Shown here piece after piece: positions 332 through 59,918 of a stretch of DNA of 64,000 nucleotides. The notes below the pieces were generated by a model. It was not told the origin of the DNA and did no database searches. It saw only the letters and a list, made by a program, of their open reading frames with translations. Made by a program: the position numbers and the translations under genes. How positions within the stretch are numbered: position 1 is the stretch's first letter; each line of letters begins with the position of its first letter. This DNA comes from Candidatus Woykebacteria bacterium (lineage in GTDB: Bacteria; Patescibacteriota; Microgenomatia; Woykebacterales; RBG-16-39-9b): positions 14,980 to 78,979 of the forward strand of contig JBBDPM010000004.1 in NCBI GenBank assembly GCA_040876345.1, given 5' to 3'.

Positions 332-1522
332 TTATTTTTTCTTGTATTTAATAATTACTCTCATGTAAGGAATAGTGGCCTTTCCGTTTTCATTATAATA
401 GCCAAGAATTGGATGGTCTTCACTAATTGATCCTGTGCCTCCATTTTGATAATAATTACTTACAAACTCTTTATTTAAACCCTTTGGTGTAAGCTCTCTA
501 TATAAGTTACCTTGACCTAATCCAATAATTTCAAACTGCTCGGGAGAATACTTATCCAAAAAGCTAATCGGGACACCCATCAAACCGTTATAATCGCTCG
601 GGATATTTTTTACCAATGATACTTCTATCGCCTCATAATTGTCATATTTGTCATATGGTTTTTTTGTTACAAACTTGATTACCTCTGCCTTGGTCATAAG
701 CGGTAATGGTTCGTGACGACGTCCATGATCAAGGTTGGTGAACCAGCGGACGCCTTGCACTCTAGTGATATAAACTTTCTTGCCACTTTCATTTGTTTTT
801 ATTTCACGAACTTGCTCTAAATTTGCAATACCTTCTGGTATCTCAAAAAACATTGCACCACCATTGATTTTATAATTATTACCTAACCAAATTTTATTAT
901 CCTTAATTAGAGGAAATATATTCGTATATTTTAAAGCATTCAAGTTGCCGATGATCAAAAACTTTTTGTCATACTTAACAAGTTGTTGTATATACTCACG
1001 AAACAAACTGAATGGCGGATTAGTTACCACAATGTCAGATTGTTTCAGTAAATCTATAGACTCGTCACTACGAAAGTCGCCATCTCCTTCTAGTGGCGTC
1101 CATTCGTTATTCTTGTTTGCCTTTAACTGCTTGGCGACATCTTTTAAGTTAAATTCGCCATCACCGTCTATATCTTTCACTTCGTTGATAATAAATTTGT
1201 TGGCGGTTATCTTCGGACGTCCTTTTGACTTTGTGAGAGTTTTGTCGTCGCCAAATAATTGTAGTTGCGTGTTGGCGACAGGTGATGGCTTGTAGCTGGT
1301 AGTGATAAGCTGATTTAATCCGAGTTTGTTAAAATTGAGCACGAAATAGCGAAAAAAATTGCTTTCAAACGGATCGTCGCAGTTGCAATATATTACCTTA
1401 CCTCGGAATACATCGGGGTTATATTCTAAATATGCCCCAATCTCTTTCTGAATATCGCTATATTGGGTATAAAACTCGTCGTTCTTTACCCGTTTTGCAT
1501 TTGTAAGATTTTTGTTTGCCAT
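332..1522 (-). CDS. N6-adenine DNA methyltransferase (N6_Mtase-type, NPPF motif IV)
   Basis: ORF 332..1606. TNPPFSLF is motif IV of amino-MTases. Start chosen at ATG 1522 (MANKNL), preceded by GGAGAATAATTTT; this avoids overlap with the upstream gene, which ends at 1527. Confidence 0.7.
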
Positions 1523-1526
1523 AAAA

Positions 1527-2138
1527 TTATTCTCCACTCTCAATTCTTCGTCTGCGTTCATCGAGGGTTTCGCCGTCATACATCCAGTAATCAGTGCCTG
1601 CAACATTATAAGTAACCCCGAGAATTTTTTGAGCGGATGTTGAAAGACTTGTCACTTCACCACTATACTCAATTGATTTTCCTGAATTAAGATTTACGAC
1701 TTTAGCTTTTTTAGACTCGTCACGGCTGAAATAAATTTCAGAACCTAACGGAATGTTTGCCAATTCAAAATTAAACCTTCCACGCCGCTCAAGCGCTTCC
1801 TCGTGCGCCTCACGGTCTTCCTTAGATTCAATTAAATCTTTTTTAGGAGTAATATTTTCAACCTCTGCCAATTTTAAAGCCGCGACCACACGTTCCGGTG
1901 CAATTTGAAAGAATTCCCGACGTGGGTTCACACGGTTGTTATCAAAGGCATCGTGAAGTTGGTGTTCAACGAATTGAGAATTTTTTACAGTGCAAGCATA
2001 GAAAACTATAAAAGGTAACGGTACGCTAGTTGATGCACTTAATTCTCGAACGCGTTGTTCAAGGTTGTTATTTGTTTTCCCAATCTTCACATAACCAGGC
2101 ATCGCTTCATTAGTCAGGATATAAATAATCTCATTCAT
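1527..2138 (-). CDS. GIY-YIG nuclease superfamily protein (T5orf172/MUG113-like N-terminus, DUF4357-like C-terminus)
   Basis: N-terminus IYILTNEAMPGYVKIGKT...RV.EL resembles the T5orf172 GIY-YIG-like domain. First gene of a tightly packed minus-strand operon with the MTase and DUF262 genes. Confidence 0.6.
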   Translation of the reverse strand: MNEIIYILTNEAMPGYVKIGKTNNNLEQRVRELSASTSVPLPFIVFYACTVKNSQFVEHQLHDAFDNNRVNPRREFFQIAPERVVAALKLAEVENITPKKDLIESKEDREAHEEALERRGRFNFELANIPLGSEIYFSRDESKKAKVVNLNSGKSIEYSGEVTSLSTSAQKILGVTYNVAGTDYWMYDGETLDERRRRIESGE

Positions 2139-2270: not shown

Positions 2271-2569
2271 ATTGAATTAAGGGCGGAAAACCCAAATCTT
2301 CAATATTGACCGAGGCAATTTAATTTTGGAAGTATAGAAATAAGGGGAAAGTATGTTGGTTTACTGCGAAAAGCAAGTTAGGCTAATTAATCAGGAGAGT
2401 TTTATCTTTGGATTATTGTAGAAGAAAATTCGTACTATGTGAAATTGACATTACTTGACAAAGTTGTTAATATATATTTTGGATGAGTGATAAGTCCGAT
2501 ACAGGTTGTTCTTAGTGTTCCCATTCATCTGTTTGGCTAAGCTAGGACAAAACAAGCCTGTAAGGCAAC

Positions 2570-3225
2570 TCATCCTTTTAAGTATAAATCCTCAAACTTT
2601 ACTTTCTCCTTAAAAGTTTCTAACCACTCTGTATCTCTTCTCTCATATTTTTGAAAGACTCCCCAGCAAAACATATCGGCAACCTGCAGCCCAGCACTTT
2701 GTTTCGAATCCCAATGATACATATCAAGAGTTACTTTGGGATCTAATCTACCTTGAATTTGAGAGCGGATATAAAAATTAAACTCATCAATCTCGGGTTT
2801 ACTTTTGGACCTATCAATAATAAGCTCGACCCTGTTTACATGGTTCTTTTCAAAAGGAATTTTGTCGATAACTTGTCTTGCAATAAAATTGTAAACTCTG
2901 GGTTTATCTTTAGTGAGTCTATCAAAGACCCTCTTCTTATTGAGAGTTATTGCATAAATCTCAAATTTAACTTTACTTAATTGATTGTAGAAGTACTGCT
3001 TAACTTCTAAAGTTGTATCTTTTCCTTTTAACTCTTCAACAATTCTTCTGCGGTGCCTTTTGGGGTTTAGTTTTCTACGCAGGGTAACCTTTACCCCTTT
3101 TGTTAATTTTCGATTGTCTTCTATCCCACTCACAGCCAAAATAGAAATCGTGAAGAATTTTGAAGGTTTTTTGTTGACAAAGTCAAACCCTAAATCACCA
3201 CTTTCGTCTAAGTATAAATACCACA
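2570..3225 (-). CDS. DUF3800 family protein
   Basis: MWYLYLDESGDLGF at the N-terminus and LQVADMFCWG near the C-terminus are the DUF3800 hallmarks. The ORF-track start at 3246/3247 is a TTG; the ATG at 3225 (MWYLYLDESG) is the more likely start. Confidence 0.7.
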
Positions 3226-11536: not shown

Positions 11537-11764
11537 AAACTAAAATCTGCCGGCTCAGAGAGTAACCAGCAGATTACGGCCTCCCTGAAATTGCCAACTA
11601 AAAAGCAGCCCTTGGTTCATCGTTAATCTTTAATCATTTGACGAACTTTCGGCTGCTACCTTGAGCAACTGTGGAGACTGGAAAGTCCTACCACCTTATT
11701 TATTTGTTAATCATATTATAACACAAGCAACAAGATTGTGCTGGAATCTCTTTAATTAAACATT

Positions 11765-11841
11765 GGCCTAGCAGCAAATAAGACGTGAAAGCGTCGGAGT
11801 CGTAATGCGGCACATCCCGTTGACTCTGACGCTGCTAGGCC
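11765..11841 (+). other. GC-rich imperfect long hairpin (GGCCTAGCAGC...GCGTCGGAGTC / GACTCTGACGC-TGCTAGGCC) with a duplicated TGCGGCACAT(C/T)C box
   Basis: Complementarity was read directly from the sequence. Lies between the recombinase/DnaD-like genes and a small ORF with strong RBS AAAGGAGG. Confidence 0.4.
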
Positions 11842-11902
11842 GATGACGAGGGGTGTGTCGCACTATTTTGCGGCACATTCACAACCAAAGGAGGTCTAGC
11901 AA

Positions 11903-12127
11903 ATGGGTTACTGGGAAATAATAGGTATATTGTTCTTGATTTCCGTTCTTCTAGCGGGGATCTTGGAAAAGAATTGGAAACCGCTACTTGGTTTGATTGG
12001 AGCAATCATATTTCTAGTCTTATTCTTTCTCTTTGTGGACTGGCTTTCACCTAAACCTGGTGAAACCACACCCGAATCCGATCCAAGTTGTATCGAAATG
12101 CAAGGGCAAACAAGGTTGGGCTGCTAA
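11903..12127 (+). CDS. Small two-TM membrane protein
   Basis: Strong RBS AAAGGAGG 8 nt upstream. 74 aa, hydrophobic. Confidence 0.4.
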   Translation: MGYWEIIGILFLISVLLAGILEKNWKPLLGLIGAIIFLVLFFLFVDWLSPKPGETTPESDPSCIEMQGQTRLGC

Positions 12128-16514: not shown

Positions 16515-16576
16515 CCCTGGATTATTCTCTCTAATCAGTGCTATAGGATTTTTGTGTCGAGATTCTGAGACACCCC

Positions 16577-16806
16577 TTTTTATAGGGTCTCATTTGTCTC
16601 ATTTAGCCTCCTGATGAGACAAGACCCTTGCGACTATAATCGTCCTCGATTTAGTCCACGAGGTGGTCGCAAAGCGCGAAGCGATCTACATCTCGCCGCT
16701 TGAAACTCTGCGAGTTATAATCGCAGATTACATCAGCTCTTGTAACACAAGAGTGTTATAGCGACTGAACTGACCGAGACCCCAATGCTTCACCATTGTT
16801 GTTTCC
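16577..16806. repeat. Intergenic repeat family, copy 1 (~230 bp), ends GGGTCTC...GAGACCC
   Basis: 5' block tttttataGGGTCTCATTTGTCTCA, internal ATTTAGCCTC, and 3' block AGCGACTGAACTGACCGAGACCCCAATGCTTCACCA are shared with copy 2. Contains an internal hairpin GGGTCTcattTGTCTCAT...ATGAGACAagaccc. Confidence 0.8.
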
Positions 16807-16875
16807 TTGGTGACAAATGGCCCAATTAGCTCGAAGGATAAGTAAGTTCAAGAAAGGCAGGAGGGCAGGTAAGAA

Positions 16876-34459: not shown

Positions 34460-35077
34460 TTAGTGGTACTTTCTTATGACTCCAACTACCTTGCCTTGAA
34501 TTTTAACGTTCCTAGTAAGGATAGGATTCATTGAGGAATTTGCTGGCTCAAGACGCACGTGATCAATTTCTCTAAAATATCTTTTTAAAGTAGCAAATGA
34601 GTCGTTTAGCAAAGCTACAACAATATCTCCGTTTTGCGCATCTTCCTGTTGCTCAATTACTACGAAGTCACCATCCAAAATTGCTGCTTCCACCATGGAG
34701 TTTCCTTTGACTTGGAGAACATAGCAGCGCTTATTACCAACCATGTCTGGTGGAATCATTACCGAGGAGGTGTGATCCTCAATTGCTTCTATTGGAGAGC
34801 CAGCTGCAATTCTGCCTACCAATGGGAGCTCGACTGCCGATGGTACCCAGCCAATCGCTCTTTGATCCACTACTTCAATTCCGCGGCGTACCCCATCTGT
34901 TTTTTTAAGCACCCCCTTAGCCATTAAGTTTTGGATGTGCTCGTGCACAGTAGCGGGAGAGCGAAGGCCCAGACCATCACAAATTTCGGCCAAAGTTGGG
35001 GCATAGCCATGCTTTTGCATAAACTGCGAAACAAATTGTAGTAAGTCTCTTTGTCGTTTGTAAATTACTGGGGCCAT
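34460..35077 (-). CDS. lexA: LexA repressor
   Basis: N-terminal winged HTH, C-terminal S24 peptidase with GNSM and the catalytic Ser/Lys region. Confidence 0.9.
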   Translation of the reverse strand: MAPVIYKRQRDLLQFVSQFMQKHGYAPTLAEICDGLGLRSPATVHEHIQNLMAKGVLKKTDGVRRGIEVVDQRAIGWVPSAVELPLVGRIAAGSPIEAIEDHTSSVMIPPDMVGNKRCYVLQVKGNSMVEAAILDGDFVVIEQQEDAQNGDIVVALLNDSFATLKRYFREIDHVRLEPANSSMNPILTRNVKIQGKVVGVIRKYH

Positions 35078-35233
35078 ATGAGTTTTTATTTAAATTATAA
35101 ACTAGAAGACGAGCAGGTTTTGTTAGAACTACTTCGTCTAATTTCTGGATTAATTATCGCCCTATTTTCGGGGTTGGTCAAGAGAGTCAAAATGGGTAAA
35201 AAAGGGTCAGATATGGTCAGTTGAAATATATCC

Positions 35234-35261
35234 TTGACGTAAAGCTCGTTTGGTATATAAT
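35234..35261 (+). promoter_or_regulatory. Strong sigma70-like promoter (TTGACG, 16 bp spacer, TATAAT)
   Basis: -35 at 35234-35239, -10 at 35256-35261. Fires into the GC-rich ORF-less region upstream of uvrB. Confidence 0.55.
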
Positions 35262-35269
35262 AATTTTGG

Positions 35270-35700
35270 AATTGCGGGTTTTCCTAGTTCGTGTAGGGAA
35301 GCAGGCCCACCACCTTAACTTCCCGCCTGCAATGACCTGGACCGCTCCAAAGCCTCCCTGCCGAGGAGCGGACAGAGAGATCTCAGAGCGAAAGCTCTGT
35401 TTTCTTGTAGAGCGCCAAATTAGCGCTCACAACTAATTTTGTGGATCTGGGTCACGCCCTTCCCGTACACCAGTGTGGCCTGGGGAAGCGTGCAGGAGTT
35501 TGTCGGCCTGTGGCCTACTCCTGCCACGAAATTTCCATGGAAAGCGCTAACCACGCGCCATCCATTTAGGCTGTCTTCTGGTCTCGTGTGCTGGTACGTC
35601 CCTCCTCCAGGACGAACACCGCACGCGGGAATCAGAATGATCGCTACGGGCCCAAGTTGAGCGCTCCTCACCGAGAATCTCTTGGGCCCTAACCCTTTAG
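35270..35700 (+). ncRNA. Candidate structured ncRNA or long structured leader of unknown class (GC-rich island)
   Basis: About 430 nt, much more GC-rich than its surroundings. Only short overlapping ORFs on both strands. Many local hairpins: gcaggc/gcctgc, ccgctcc/ggagcgg, cagagc-GAAA-gctctg, gagcgc/gcgctc, and a 9 bp closing-type helix GGGCCCAAG...CTTGGGCCC at the 3' end. Lies downstream of the promoter above. Confidence 0.4.
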
Positions 35701-35775
35701 GTTATTCACTTTTCCTAGAATGCTTATTACTCGAGGTCTTTAATACTTCAACTTCTTAAGTTAGAATCTAGATTT

Positions 35776-37800
35776 ATGAACAAGTTTAAACTAAAGTCCC
35801 CCTGGCCGCCGACGGGTGATCAACCAGTGGCGATAGAAAAGCTAGTCAAGGGGCTTCAGGAGGGCTTTAAACACCAAGTTTTGCTGGGCGCCACTGGGAC
35901 CGGTAAGACTTTTACCATGGCCAATGTTGTGGCCCAGATTAACAAACCAACTCTGTTAATCGCTCATAATAAGACTTTAGCAGCCCAACTTGCTTCTGAG
36001 TTTCGTGAATTTTTCCCCGAAAATGCTGTCGAATATTTTGTAAGCTATTACGATTACTACCAACCAGAAGCGTATGTCCCGCAGATTGACTTATACATCG
36101 AAAAAGACGCCGATATTAATGAAGAAATAGATAGGCTTAGACTGGCAGCTACAAAAGCTTTAATGACTAGAAGTGATGTCCTAATCGTTGCATCAGTTTC
36201 TTGTATTTACAATATTGGCTCGCCAGAGGCTTACAAAGAGAGCGTTTTAACGCTTTTCAAAGGCCAAAAAATCTTGGTTAAAGAAATCTTGGCAAGGCTC
36301 GTAGAAATCCAGTACGAGAGAAATGATCTTGATCTGAAAAGGGGAAAATTTAGAGTGAAGGGGGACACGGTGGAAATTTACCCTGCCTATGAGGAGTTTG
36401 TGGTAAGAGTAAGTTTCCTTGGAGATTCGATTGAGAAGATTGAAAAGCTAGACCCGACAAGCTTCGATAATCAAGAAGCTCTTGAAGAGATAGTTGTTTT
36501 CCCAGCCCGCCATTACGTAATGCCTCGTCAAAACCTCGAAGATCCACTTTCTCAAATTAGAAATGATCTTGATGGCAGACTAAAATATCTAAAAAAAGAA
36601 AACAGGGTAGTTGAAGCAAAAAGACTGGAAGCCCGCACCAAATTTGACCTTGAACAACTTGAGCAGCTCGGTTTTGTAAAGGGAATAGAGAATTATTCAC
36701 GCTATTTTGACGGTCGTGAGGCTGGAGAACCACCATACACCCTGATTGATTATTTTCCCAAGGACTATCTTTTAATTATTGATGAATCCCACATGAGTGT
36801 GCCGCAAATAAAGGCGATGTGGCACGGGGAACGAGCTCGAAAGAATGTCCTGATTGATAACGGCTTTAGACTACCTAGTGCAATGGATAACCGGCCTTTA
36901 ACTTTTGAAGAATTTTCCCGGAAAGTAAATCAAGTGGTTTACACTTCTGCGACCCCAAGCGTCTATGAAACTTCTCTTGCGGAGAGAGTTGTTGAACAAG
37001 TAATAAGGCCGACTGGTATTGTTGATCCCCAGATTGAGGTAAGAAAAACAAAGGGACAAATTCAGGATTTGATTGAGGAAATACAAAAACGAGTTAAAAA
37101 GGGTCAACGAGTCTTAGTTACCACGCTAACGAAACACATGGCTGAGGACCTTACTGAGTTTTTAGCTGAACGCGAGATAAAAGTGATGTACATTCACTAC
37201 CAAGTGGATACTTTGCAAAGAATAGACATCCTGCGGGATTTAAGAAAGGGAATTTATGACGTACTGGTCGGAATAAATCTACTTCGAGAAGGATTGGACC
37301 TTCCCGAAGTTTCCTTGGTCGCAATACTAGATGCCGATAAAGAAGGTTTCTTGCGGTCTCAAACGAGTTTGATTCAAACAACTGGCAGAGCTGCCCGTCA
37401 CATTGAGGGTAGAGTGATAATGTATGCCGATAACATCACTGGCTCCATGAAAGCGGCAATTGCGGAGACTAATCGTCGGCGCAACGTTCAAATCTCGTAT
37501 AACAAAAAGCACAATATCACACCTGCCACAATTCAGAAAGCGATTCATGATATTGGTGAGAGGCTAGCTGAACTTCAGCCAGAAGTAACAACGGTCGAAG
37601 AGCTTGATTTCACTAAGATTCCTAAAACTGAAATAAAAAGGTTGTCGAAAGATTTGGAATCTGAGATGAAGCTAGCTGCCGAAAACCTCGAGTTCGAGCG
37701 CGCAGCCTTACTTCGTGATCAATTTTTAGAGCTAAAAAACCAAAATTTGGTAATTCCCAAAACAATAACAACTAAAGAAGCAAGAAAAATTAAAATGTAG
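35776..37800 (+). CDS. uvrB: Excinuclease ABC subunit B
   Basis: GATGTGKT helicase motif I, beta-hairpin region, C-terminal UVR domain. Confidence 0.95.
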
Positions 37801-38130
37801 GTGGTGGAGCCAAGTTCGCCGTGTCAACGACGGGGGCGGAAACTCAACCCCACCTGAACTGTTGTCAACCTAGTTGACTCAACGACCATCCTCAACCTTC
37901 ACTCCTAGACTGATGGACGCGATGTTGGTCCGAAGAACCTGGAACCATGGACGGCGTGCGATCATCAGCAGCTCTGGTCAAGACAGGAACGCTTCGGCTT
38001 AATCTATACCAGCTCCTCTTGGTCAGGCAAGGTGCCGTGGTAGGGACTATCCTACAGAGGGTGATCCTCACCGCACCTAGTTTCGACTCACTTCTAATTA
38101 GTTGCATTTTAAACTTTAATATTGCGAGTT
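37801..38130. other. GC-rich structured intergenic element between uvrB and uvrA; contains the palindrome GTCAAC-cta-GTTGAC at 37864-37878
   Basis: ORF-poor and GC-rich. Multiple stems, for example GGTGGTGG...CCCCACC at the 5' edge. Confidence 0.35.
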
Positions 38131-38191
38131 GTTGTAAAAATTTGCGAAAGAGACTATACTTTTACGCTACGCTATTTCAGTAATCACGATC

Positions 38192-56242: not shown

Positions 56243-56435
56243 TAATTTTATTATCTAATTTTAGGATTAAATTGTCAAAAAATATTTTGGGCAAAGTCTT
56301 GCTAATTGAATTTTTAGCCTTGATTTGATAAAATTACTCAATCTGAAAGCCCGTAGCTCAATCAGTAGAACAATAAAGCGTTCTGCGACTACTAAAGCTG
56401 ACTATGAGCAGCGGCCTTTGAAGGAAGATTCTGCT

Positions 56436-56511
56436 GGGCGGCTAGCTCAATTGGTAGAGCAGCGGCCTTTTAAGCCGCGTGTTCTGGGTTCGAGTCCCAG
56501 GCCGCTCACCA
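56436..56511 (+). tRNA. tRNA-Lys (anticodon TTT), CCA encoded
   Basis: Acceptor GGGCGGC/GCCGCTC, D-arm GCTC-AATTGGTA-GAGC, anticodon stem GCGGC with loop CTTTTAA, T-arm CTGGG-TTCGAGT-CCCAG. Confidence 0.85.
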
Positions 56512-56894
56512 GAATCTTCTTTTTATTTTGAAAATAAATCACGTGTTCTGGGTTCTGGACCTCAATAGATTCACATCTCACCTCATAGCTAATTCGATAA
56601 ATTGACAACCTATAGTCAATGTAGTACAATACAATATGTACTACTATAGGAGGTATGTTGATAATTTCATATCAATGGCTCTTGTTAGTCTCTACGCTTC
56701 TGTTCTGCTCGCGGAAGGTAGTGAGTTTCTTGTTAAGAAAGAAATCTCTTCTAATTTAACTAACCATTCAAACGAAAAAACCATTCATTATGAATCAAGC
56801 GAATTCCCGAAGCACTTACCGGAAAAAATTCAGGGCTTTAAACTTTGCGTATGGGATAACTGCTCAATTTCCGTCAGTATCGCCGGTATTAAAC

Positions 56895-59264: not shown

Positions 59265-59394
59265 AGAAAATATATCCTAGCATATATTAGCAGACTGGTC
59301 AAGAGGGTGCTAAACGAATGTTTGGGTGGCGGAAACCGTCGAGAATTTAATCCGGCGGTTTCCACCACACTAGGGACATTTGAAGACCCTAATA

Positions 59395-59709
59395 TCAGCA
59401 GGATGCAATACTGAGGGTTATTGTACCACCACGACGCACCTCAAAATTGTACCTGCTGATAATGACACGGTACGTGGTGTCTTCCCTGACAGTTGTACCA
59501 GTGATAACTATTTGGTCGTTGCCGATGTGGCCAGCGCTCTTGATCTTCACATCAACAACTCCCCAACATCGCGTTGGGAATGGGACAGTATCTTCGCCTT
59601 TTGGCCAAGCGCTGTCGATTGTCTCAAGCGTTGGTCCTCCGTCGTCAATTACATCCGAGCTCTCAGCCGTCGTCACCTCTAGACTCCTCTCAATCACGAA
59701 AGTACTCAC
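59395..59709 (-). CDS. Hypothetical protein; call ambiguous because long ORFs overlap on both strands in a GC-richer segment
   Basis: GTG start with no SD. Competing plus-strand ORFs at 59380..59682 and 59447..59800. Confidence 0.2.
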   Translation of the reverse strand: MSTFVIERSLEVTTAESSDVIDDGGPTLETIDSAWPKGEDTVPFPTRCWGVVDVKIKSAGHIGNDQIVITGTTVREDTTYRVIISRYNFEVRRGGTITLSIASC

Positions 59710-59918
59710 CAGGTATTGGCGAGCCTTTTTTATCCTTGTTTTGTTGTTGGGTGGGGGAATTCTTAAACCAAGACCAAAGAAGGATCGCCAACTATTTTAG
59801 TTGGTAATCCCAATAATGATACTAATTTGGTTTAAACAAGAGGTCATTTTATTTAAATACTAAAACAAAGTACGCTTGTCAAGAAAATTAACCCTTGGCA
59901 TAATACCTGAATCCTTGA

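Follow-up and report, generated by a model that had tools for sequence, protein, structure and literature searches.

Between the divergently oriented lexA gene and uvrB of a Candidatus Woykebacteria genome lies a GC-rich element of ~430 nt (~35268-35715, plus strand), which very probably belongs to a genuine family of structured non-coding RNA (ncRNA) genes. All positions are those of the window, i.e. the whole 64,000-nt stretch of DNA analysed, unless a related locus is named. The family was previously undescribed and is not contained in Rfam 15; so far it has four distinct members, which come from one narrow lineage and occupy one locus. With moderate confidence we interpret the element as an independent ncRNA gene of a small Woykebacteria family at lexA-uvrB, the product of which is most likely a trans-acting regulator.

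A GC-rich element with its own promoter in the lexA-uvrB gap

The lexA gene (205 aa, 34460-35077) is located on the minus strand, divergently from the RNA gene, and uvrB (674 aa, 35776-37800) on the plus strand. The lexA homologues carry the domains PF01726 and PF00717 and are named LexA in Candidatus Woykebacteria; for uvrB, the UvrB Pfam domains were found on the syntenic genes of the relatives. A preliminary description of this DNA had reported a GC content far above that of the surroundings, only short overlapping ORFs on both strands, a textbook promoter at 35234-35261, many hairpins including a GNRA-capped stem, a 9-bp terminal helix, and no match to RNase P RNA, tmRNA or SRP RNA. All these observations were reproduced. 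The gap between the two genes (35078-35775, 698 nt) was the GC-richest of the 22 intergenic gaps compared in the window; when GC content was determined in 200-nt windows, it amounted to 0.54-0.57 across 35300-35699 versus 0.36-0.44 in the flanking DNA and 0.41 in the window as a whole.

The promoter of the RNA gene (35234-35261, plus strand, TTGACG-16-TATAAT) matches 11 of the 12 sigma-70 consensus positions and was the top site of the region, in which four promoter-like sites were found versus 0.8 expected from shuffles. As judged from the promoter sequence, transcription would start near G35268. The lexA promoter (TTGACC-17-GATAAT, 35153-35181, minus strand) is conserved in all related loci.

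The ORFs within the element are short and overlapping, the longest encoding 83 aa on the minus strand and 73 and 71 aa on the plus strand. They gave no meaningful match in Pfam and PADLOC searches, are not hydrophobic, have no ribosome binding site (RBS), and none is common to the homologues described below. Comparison of the inserts of the related loci by tblastx, including the ORFs that occupy the same place in some relatives, revealed no protein-level similarity and no ORF conserved in the homologues. The type I toxin-antitoxin mRNA was rejected as a candidate, since there is no conserved hydrophobic small ORF. When the element was searched on both strands against Rfam 15, no family matched at the gathering score or at E <= 10; the homologues had no Rfam match, and ARAGORN run on the window predicted no tmRNA anywhere in it and no tRNA at the element.

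Occupancy of the lexA-uvrB slot in related lineages

The lexA neighbourhoods of relatives (designated L081, L082, etc.) were gathered by exact-protein look-up of LexA homologues and by a LexA-based metagenome scan. UvrB is too conserved for this purpose: among the matches listed by a UvrB-based scan of genome contigs there was no close relative (best identity 60%), and nhmmer revealed no useful locus. The resulting survey comprised 17 distinct lineages including the window, with LexA identities of 73-88%. The order uvrB/gap/lexA was kept in the relatives, and the content of the gap varied. In nine of the 17 lineages (L088, L089, L094 (=L173), L169, L170, L179, L181, L090 and L093) the gap was empty, that is, about 190-260 nt long with only the lexA and uvrB promoters inside. 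A related RNA was found in four lineages, the window, L087 (=L166), L081 (=L168) and L182, always in the same slot; the element was absent from the syntenic site in the other 13. At the equivalent place, L182 has the promoter TTGACA-18-TAGATT, and the counterparts in L087 and L081 have a perfect TATAAT with a weak -35 hexamer.

The remaining four lineages carried unrelated cargo behind a similarly placed promoter. In L084 this is an 84-aa ORF with a strong RBS (L084 3580-3835, minus strand), and L082 has three small ORFs within 1.3 kb (L082 2596-3900, minus strand), two of them encoding 164 and 68 aa and the third one being short, with strong GGAGG sites. L092 has a different GC-rich non-coding stretch of 530 nt (L092 ~1500-2050, minus strand), and L086 yet another one, on a truncated contig (L086 1-160, minus strand). 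No match was obtained when the cargo ORFs of L082 and L084 were searched with Pfam and PADLOC. Since the gap content varies among relatives, the slot has to be regarded as hypervariable and the element as accessory.

The element is flanked by a perfect 9-nt direct repeat (TTTTCCTAG, 35279-35287 and 35710-35718) and by an 11-nt inverted repeat of 91% identity (35219-35229 and 35743-35753). These repeats were not read as transposition scars, because their occurrence is about at chance level for 650 nt. A MITE- or IS-like mobile element was rejected on this ground and because the element is present in a single copy in the window and in the loci; neither the window nor 490 kb of related loci contained a second copy.

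A promoter-like site for uvrB (TTAATA-16-TAGAAT, 35740-35767, plus strand) lies between the element and the gene. The ATG follows the end of its -10 hexamer at a distance of 8 nt, and a Shine-Dalgarno (SD) sequence is lacking. Filled and empty loci are alike in this respect: in the window (35762-35778), L081, L087, L088, L089, L094, L169, L170 and L182, uvrB has no SD, and a hexamer resembling a -10 element (TAGAAT or TAAAAT) precedes its ATG by 8-9 nt. This spacing together with the missing SD implies a leaderless mRNA, and suggests that uvrB is transcribed from its own promoter.

The gap downstream of uvrB (37801-38191, between uvrB and uvrA) is a second GC-rich, ORF-poor stretch, which begins directly after the uvrB stop codon and has a core GC content of 0.54-0.57. 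It folds no better than shuffled sequences (z +0.47 and -1.44 on the two strands) and has no Rfam match. In L169 and L170 the uvrB-uvrA gaps contain different GC-rich fillers followed by a conserved uvrA promoter block, CTTGTAAAAnyTTGyAAAAA...ATATACTGnTACGCT.

Predicted secondary structure of the RNA

The minimum free energy (MFE) of the element was -186.6 kcal/mol, and its folding z-score relative to shuffled sequences was -7.1 on the plus strand versus -3.7 on the minus strand. In the 44 gap-strand tests (22 gaps on both strands, z-scores computed with mononucleotide shuffles) the element ranked third, behind 56343-56782 (plus strand).

The 5' domain (35268-35375), which was delineated from the MFE fold and a hand alignment with L081, L087 and L182, consists of helix P1 followed by helix P2. 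P1 (35268/35271-35279 paired with 35325-35333/35336) encloses a variable hairpin (35296-35324). P2 has a lower part (35337-35339 with 35373-35375) and an upper part, CCGCUCC/GGAGCGG (35342-35348 with 35365-35371). The 5' domain is followed by a variable middle expansion (35376-35534), which the window and L087 possess and of which L081 and L182 have almost nothing. The window and L087 thus represent long forms with 150-185 nt between P2 and the next conserved hairpin; most of this part is missing in L182 and in L081, which is about 300 nt long, and the length of the members differs about 1.5-fold. The expansion includes the GNRA-capped stem CAGAGC-GAAA-GCUCUG (35384-35399), which together with a U-tract extending to 35409 resembles an internal terminator. 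L087 has an equivalent of this hairpin and U-tract. In all, three members (the window at 35384-35409, L087 and L081) have terminator-like hairpins with U-runs after the 5' domain. Such internal terminator-like hairpins make a shorter product or an attenuator conceivable.

The conserved 3' domain (35535-35693), supported by covariance models and by the alignment A6 (see below), is made up of the hairpin Pa/Px (35537-35565), in which a GCGC/GCGC stem lies inside a short outer helix, a UUUAG linker between Pa/Px and Py, the long hairpin Py (35569-35645) with the C-rich apical loop CCCUCCUCCA (35600-35609), and the GC-rich terminal hairpin Pt (35648-35689). The 9-bp terminal helix, GGGCCCAAG/CUUGGGCCC, is formed by 35648-35656 and 35681-35689, which are 100% complementary. 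When the 3' half of each member was folded separately, the same three-hairpin layout (Pa/Px, UUUAG, Py, Pt) recurred. In the predicted fold the 5' and 3' ends of the element do not pair with each other.

The 3' tail (35690-35715) contains a weak AU hairpin and the U-rich run UAACCCUUUAGGUUAUUCACUUUUCC, and the 3' end of the RNA is probably located in this interval, which has no canonical intrinsic terminator. U-rich runs directly follow Pt in L081 and L182. In the window and L087 Pt has no canonical U-tract, so read-through into uvrB could occur.

Other gaps of the window also gave low folding z-scores. The strongest value (-8.0) belongs to 56343-56782 (plus strand), which holds the tRNA-Lys gene (56436-56511); just upstream of it, at about 56345-56420, there is a tRNA-like stretch (GCCCGTAGCTCAATCAGTAGAAC...) called neither by ARAGORN nor by Rfam, which may be a degenerate or interrupted tRNA. 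The 182-nt gap 59265-59446 (plus strand, z -6.1) precedes the gene at 59447-59800 and contains a long hairpin, GGTGGCGGAAACCG...CGGCGGTTTCCACCAC; it has no Rfam match and may be a cis-regulatory leader. The gaps 16515-16875 and 11547-11986 (both plus strand) had z-scores of about -4.5 to -4.8 at a GC content of 0.45 and no Rfam match. A DUF3800-V RNA motif was recognized at Rfam gathering level at 2480-2576 (plus strand, 64.5 bits, E 3.5e-12).

Structural homologues and compensatory base changes

Sequence searches with the element against the relatives (nhmmer, blastn) gave only a 33-nt match, to L087; sequence search alone therefore misses the RNA family. A covariance model built from the 3' domain of the window alone (35535-35693) with its own MFE structure (R1) was run against the window and 490 kb of related loci; its only matches outside the window were the elements at the syntenic sites of L087 (E 2e-7) and L182 (E 0.04). 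The 3' domains of the window, L087 and L182 were then aligned with Infernal (A6). In this alignment 94% of the cells form standard pairs, and 23 of the 53 base pairs are changed on both sides, a result that none of 500 shuffles matched. In control alignments in which the 3' partner was slid by 1-3 columns, 36-48% of the cells were paired and 0-6 pairs were changed on both sides. When the three-sequence model (R2) was used with filters off, its top match, covering the full length, was the syntenic site of L081 (14.4 bits, E 0.02), and L081 is accordingly a weak fourth member. About 11 G-U cells in A6 would become A-C mismatches on the opposite strand. These G-U cells, the orientation of the promoter and the folding z-scores indicate that the RNA is encoded by the plus strand.

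The 5' domains of the window, L081, L087 and L182 were aligned by hand to fit the structure, using UUGGnnnUG(C)GGGU, CCUGG(A)CCGCU and GCGGAC as anchors. In this alignment 87% of the cells in P1 and 97.5% of those in P2 were paired, with seven and six pairs, respectively, changed on both sides. For all 63 hand-aligned pairs, 91% of the cells were paired versus 33-43% in slid controls. A covariance model of the 5' domain of the window alone (R3) found no homologue. Because the alignment was structure-fitted by hand and R3 found nothing, the homology of the 5' domains is considered tentative. Full-length alignment by MAFFT followed by RNAalifold misaligned the 5' half; its one useful result was the correspondence of GCCCAAUUAGUUUAGG of L081 to GCGCCAUCCAUUUAGG of the window.

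Viral contigs were also searched. Two patterns of conserved motifs gave no matches; a gapped pattern gave at least 120 matches, 80 of which were scored with model R2 and all of these were rejected.

Alternative interpretations of the element

The preliminary description had proposed either a lineage-specific ncRNA of unassigned class or a long structured uvrB leader. The former proposal agrees with the results: there is no Rfam, ARAGORN or protein signal, no conserved reading frame was detected by tblastx or Pfam, and conservation is evident, as three further Woykebacteria lineages have homologues at this locus that keep the structure through many compensatory changes. Neither of the outcomes named in that description as refuting was thus obtained. 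The latter proposal is less likely, since uvrB has its own promoter and most relatives express uvrB without the element. A cis-acting leader or attenuator would require that transcription starting at the strong promoter continues across the element as far as uvrB; the internal and terminal hairpins would then act as conditional terminators. The element is indeed co-oriented with uvrB and directly upstream of it, Pt is not followed by a canonical U-tract in either the window or L087, and the window, L087 and L081 have terminator-like hairpins with U-runs 3' of the 5' domain. However, the conserved promoter-like site between the element and the ATG is arranged in the same way whether a locus is empty or filled, the SD-less start codon of uvrB would lie inside a read-through transcript, nine of the 17 lineages have no insert at all, and a ligand-binding aptamer would not be expected to be hypervariable in the way that the P1 interior and the middle region are. 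As uvrB has retained its promoter and is apparently leaderless, the element probably does not serve as its leader, and we consider the attenuator model rather unlikely. We also judge it unlikely that the RNA, instead of regulating host functions, travels with or forms part of a cassette of mobile, selfish or defence type inserted in the lexA-uvrB gap, for example as an orphan guide, as an antitoxin RNA or as what is left after a cassette was swapped. Presence of the element is polymorphic among lineages whose LexA proteins are 82-88% identical, the same slot behind a similar promoter accommodates unrelated cargo (ORFs in L082 and L084, GC-rich DNA in L092 and L086), the GC content is well above that of the host, and flanking 11-nt inverted and 9-nt direct repeats exist. 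The chance level of these repeats argues against a cassette, as do the single copy per locus, with no second one in the window or in the 490 kb of related loci, the lack of an adjacent partner gene for a reverse transcriptase, nuclease or transposase, the absence of PADLOC or Pfam matches among the cargo ORFs of the relatives, and the negative outcome with viral contigs.

It is very unlikely that the element is a decayed protein gene or another non-functional GC-rich remnant whose structure would be a by-product of base composition. Relatives hold small ORFs in the same slot, and the neighbouring uvrB-uvrA gap is likewise GC-rich, but that gap is not unusually structured. The conservation of pairing despite changes on both sides in 23 of the 53 pairs and the folding z-score of -7.1 are hard to reconcile with such a remnant. 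There is no tblastx similarity between the inserts or to the ORF cargo, and no Pfam match; moreover, a remnant would be expected to lose GC in a genome with 41% GC, yet 56% is kept. The least probable explanation, which can practically be dismissed, is a divergent housekeeping RNA, i.e. RNase P RNA, tmRNA, SRP RNA or 6S RNA. The size and the GC-rich multi-helix fold would fit, and short motifs recall a T-loop and CCACCA. These points are outweighed by the lack of any Rfam match even at E <= 10 for the window or the homologues, the negative ARAGORN search for tmRNA, the unpaired ends, the ~1.5-fold length difference between members, and the fact that most close relatives lack the element at this locus. 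Its patchy occurrence excludes any housekeeping RNA, including the products of rnpB, ssrA and ffs. Individual candidates were rejected as well: a two-piece tmRNA or tRNA-like RNA, suggested by the T-loop- and CCACCA-like motifs, because ARAGORN and Rfam were negative and the motifs are not positionally conserved; bacterial RNase P RNA, because no covariance model matched on either strand, the ends are unpaired and 13 of the 17 syntenic sites lack the element; and SRP RNA and 6S RNA, because no covariance model of these families matched.

Discussion

The interpretation as an independent gene would imply that a highly structured ncRNA of ~430 nt is transcribed from its own sigma-70-type promoter and ends with a GC-rich terminal hairpin. 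The core of the family would consist of P1-P2, the GCGC hairpin, UUUAG, a long hairpin whose C-rich apical loop (CUCCYCC) resembles an anti-SD sequence, and the terminal hairpin. Several traits of trans-acting small RNAs are present, namely the own promoter, the conserved 3' hairpin (with a weak U-tract in the window) and the lack of an ORF. We infer that the RNA acts in trans, in the manner of multi-hairpin RNAs of the RNAIII/RsaE/RoxS type, and that its exposed C-rich loops might pair with G-rich or ribosome-binding regions of target mRNAs. The CUCCYCC motif occurs in all four members, in the apical loop of Py or, in L087, in Pt (C-rich loops: CCCUCCUCC in the window, CUCCCCAC.. in L087, CCUCCCCCG in L182 and CCUCCCCC in L081), and further CACC and CCUCC motifs are found in the terminal hairpin. 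L087 carries CACCUCCU, which we take to be the canonical sequence of the 16S rRNA 3' tail. A trans-acting mechanism through the C-rich loop is nevertheless a tentative proposal. A motif scan detected no G-rich complement of the loop at any start codon in the 64-kb window, and an RNAduplex scan against 55 start regions gave duplexes of long sequences that were uninformative. With no G-rich site at the starts and an SD-like core in only eight of the 55 long ORFs of the window, the anti-SD idea has no target in the window.

In Gram-positive bacteria the slot divergent from lexA classically holds poorly conserved, fast-evolving SOS-induced genes, such as yneA, chiZ, divS and sosA (PMC6851548). Because of this classical occupancy, the RNA may belong to the DNA-damage response; the link to the SOS system would be one of position only, given the place of the gene beside lexA. 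When the promoter regions were inspected by eye for a LexA box, no convincing shared palindrome was found. A more far-reaching scenario, which we put forward as a speculation with little likelihood, would be that an RNA effector of the DNA-damage response has taken the lexA-divergent SOS slot in some CPR bacteria, for example silencing division or growth genes through its anti-SD-like loops, as one of several interchangeable cassettes coding for an RNA or a small protein.

CPR bacteria (Patescibacteria) are uncultivated, and almost nothing is known of their regulatory RNAs. The element described here offers a large ncRNA family with covariation support that is good for so few sequences, clean gene boundaries and a defined locus beside the SOS repressor gene. 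It is a concrete object for metatranscriptomic work and for a family entry in the style of Rfam. The hypervariable slot, filled with RNA or small ORFs or mostly with nothing, is a tractable example of rapid accessory-gene turnover beside an SOS repressor. If the RNA were damage-induced, it would be a non-protein occupant of a slot that holds division inhibitors in Gram-positive bacteria.

RNAIII of S. aureus and RsaE/RoxS of Firmicutes are multi-hairpin trans-acting regulatory RNAs with C-rich loops. Compared with them on the basis of general knowledge, the element is similar in being an independent unit of several hundred nt with many hairpins and no coding capacity, and in that its apical loops and terminal hairpin contain unpaired C-rich motifs (CUCCYCC, CACC) that are conserved. 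It differs in having no sequence or Rfam relation to these RNAs, in coming from a CPR lineage whose genome has few SD-like sites, and in being accessory rather than core. With riboswitch and attenuator leaders it shares the location upstream of a co-oriented gene and the succession of hairpins and U-runs, whereas the downstream gene, uvrB, has retained a promoter of its own and seems to be leaderless, the region that would be the aptamer is hypervariable, and the element is missing in most relatives. Like yneA, chiZ, divS and sosA, it fills the lexA-divergent slot with content that is poorly conserved between related lineages, as illustrated by the 84-aa ORF in the slot of L084. Unlike these genes, it is a structured RNA with no ORF and does not specify a transmembrane or LysM protein, and its control by LexA is putative. 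Finally, the element resembles the orphan motifs of the type described by Weinberg and Breaker (e.g. the DUF3800-V RNA) in being a GC-rich, ORF-free, covarying intergenic element of uncultivated bacteria; it is distinguished from these by its absence from Rfam 15, by a size larger than that of most of them, and by its association with a locus, lexA-uvrB, rather than with a gene family.
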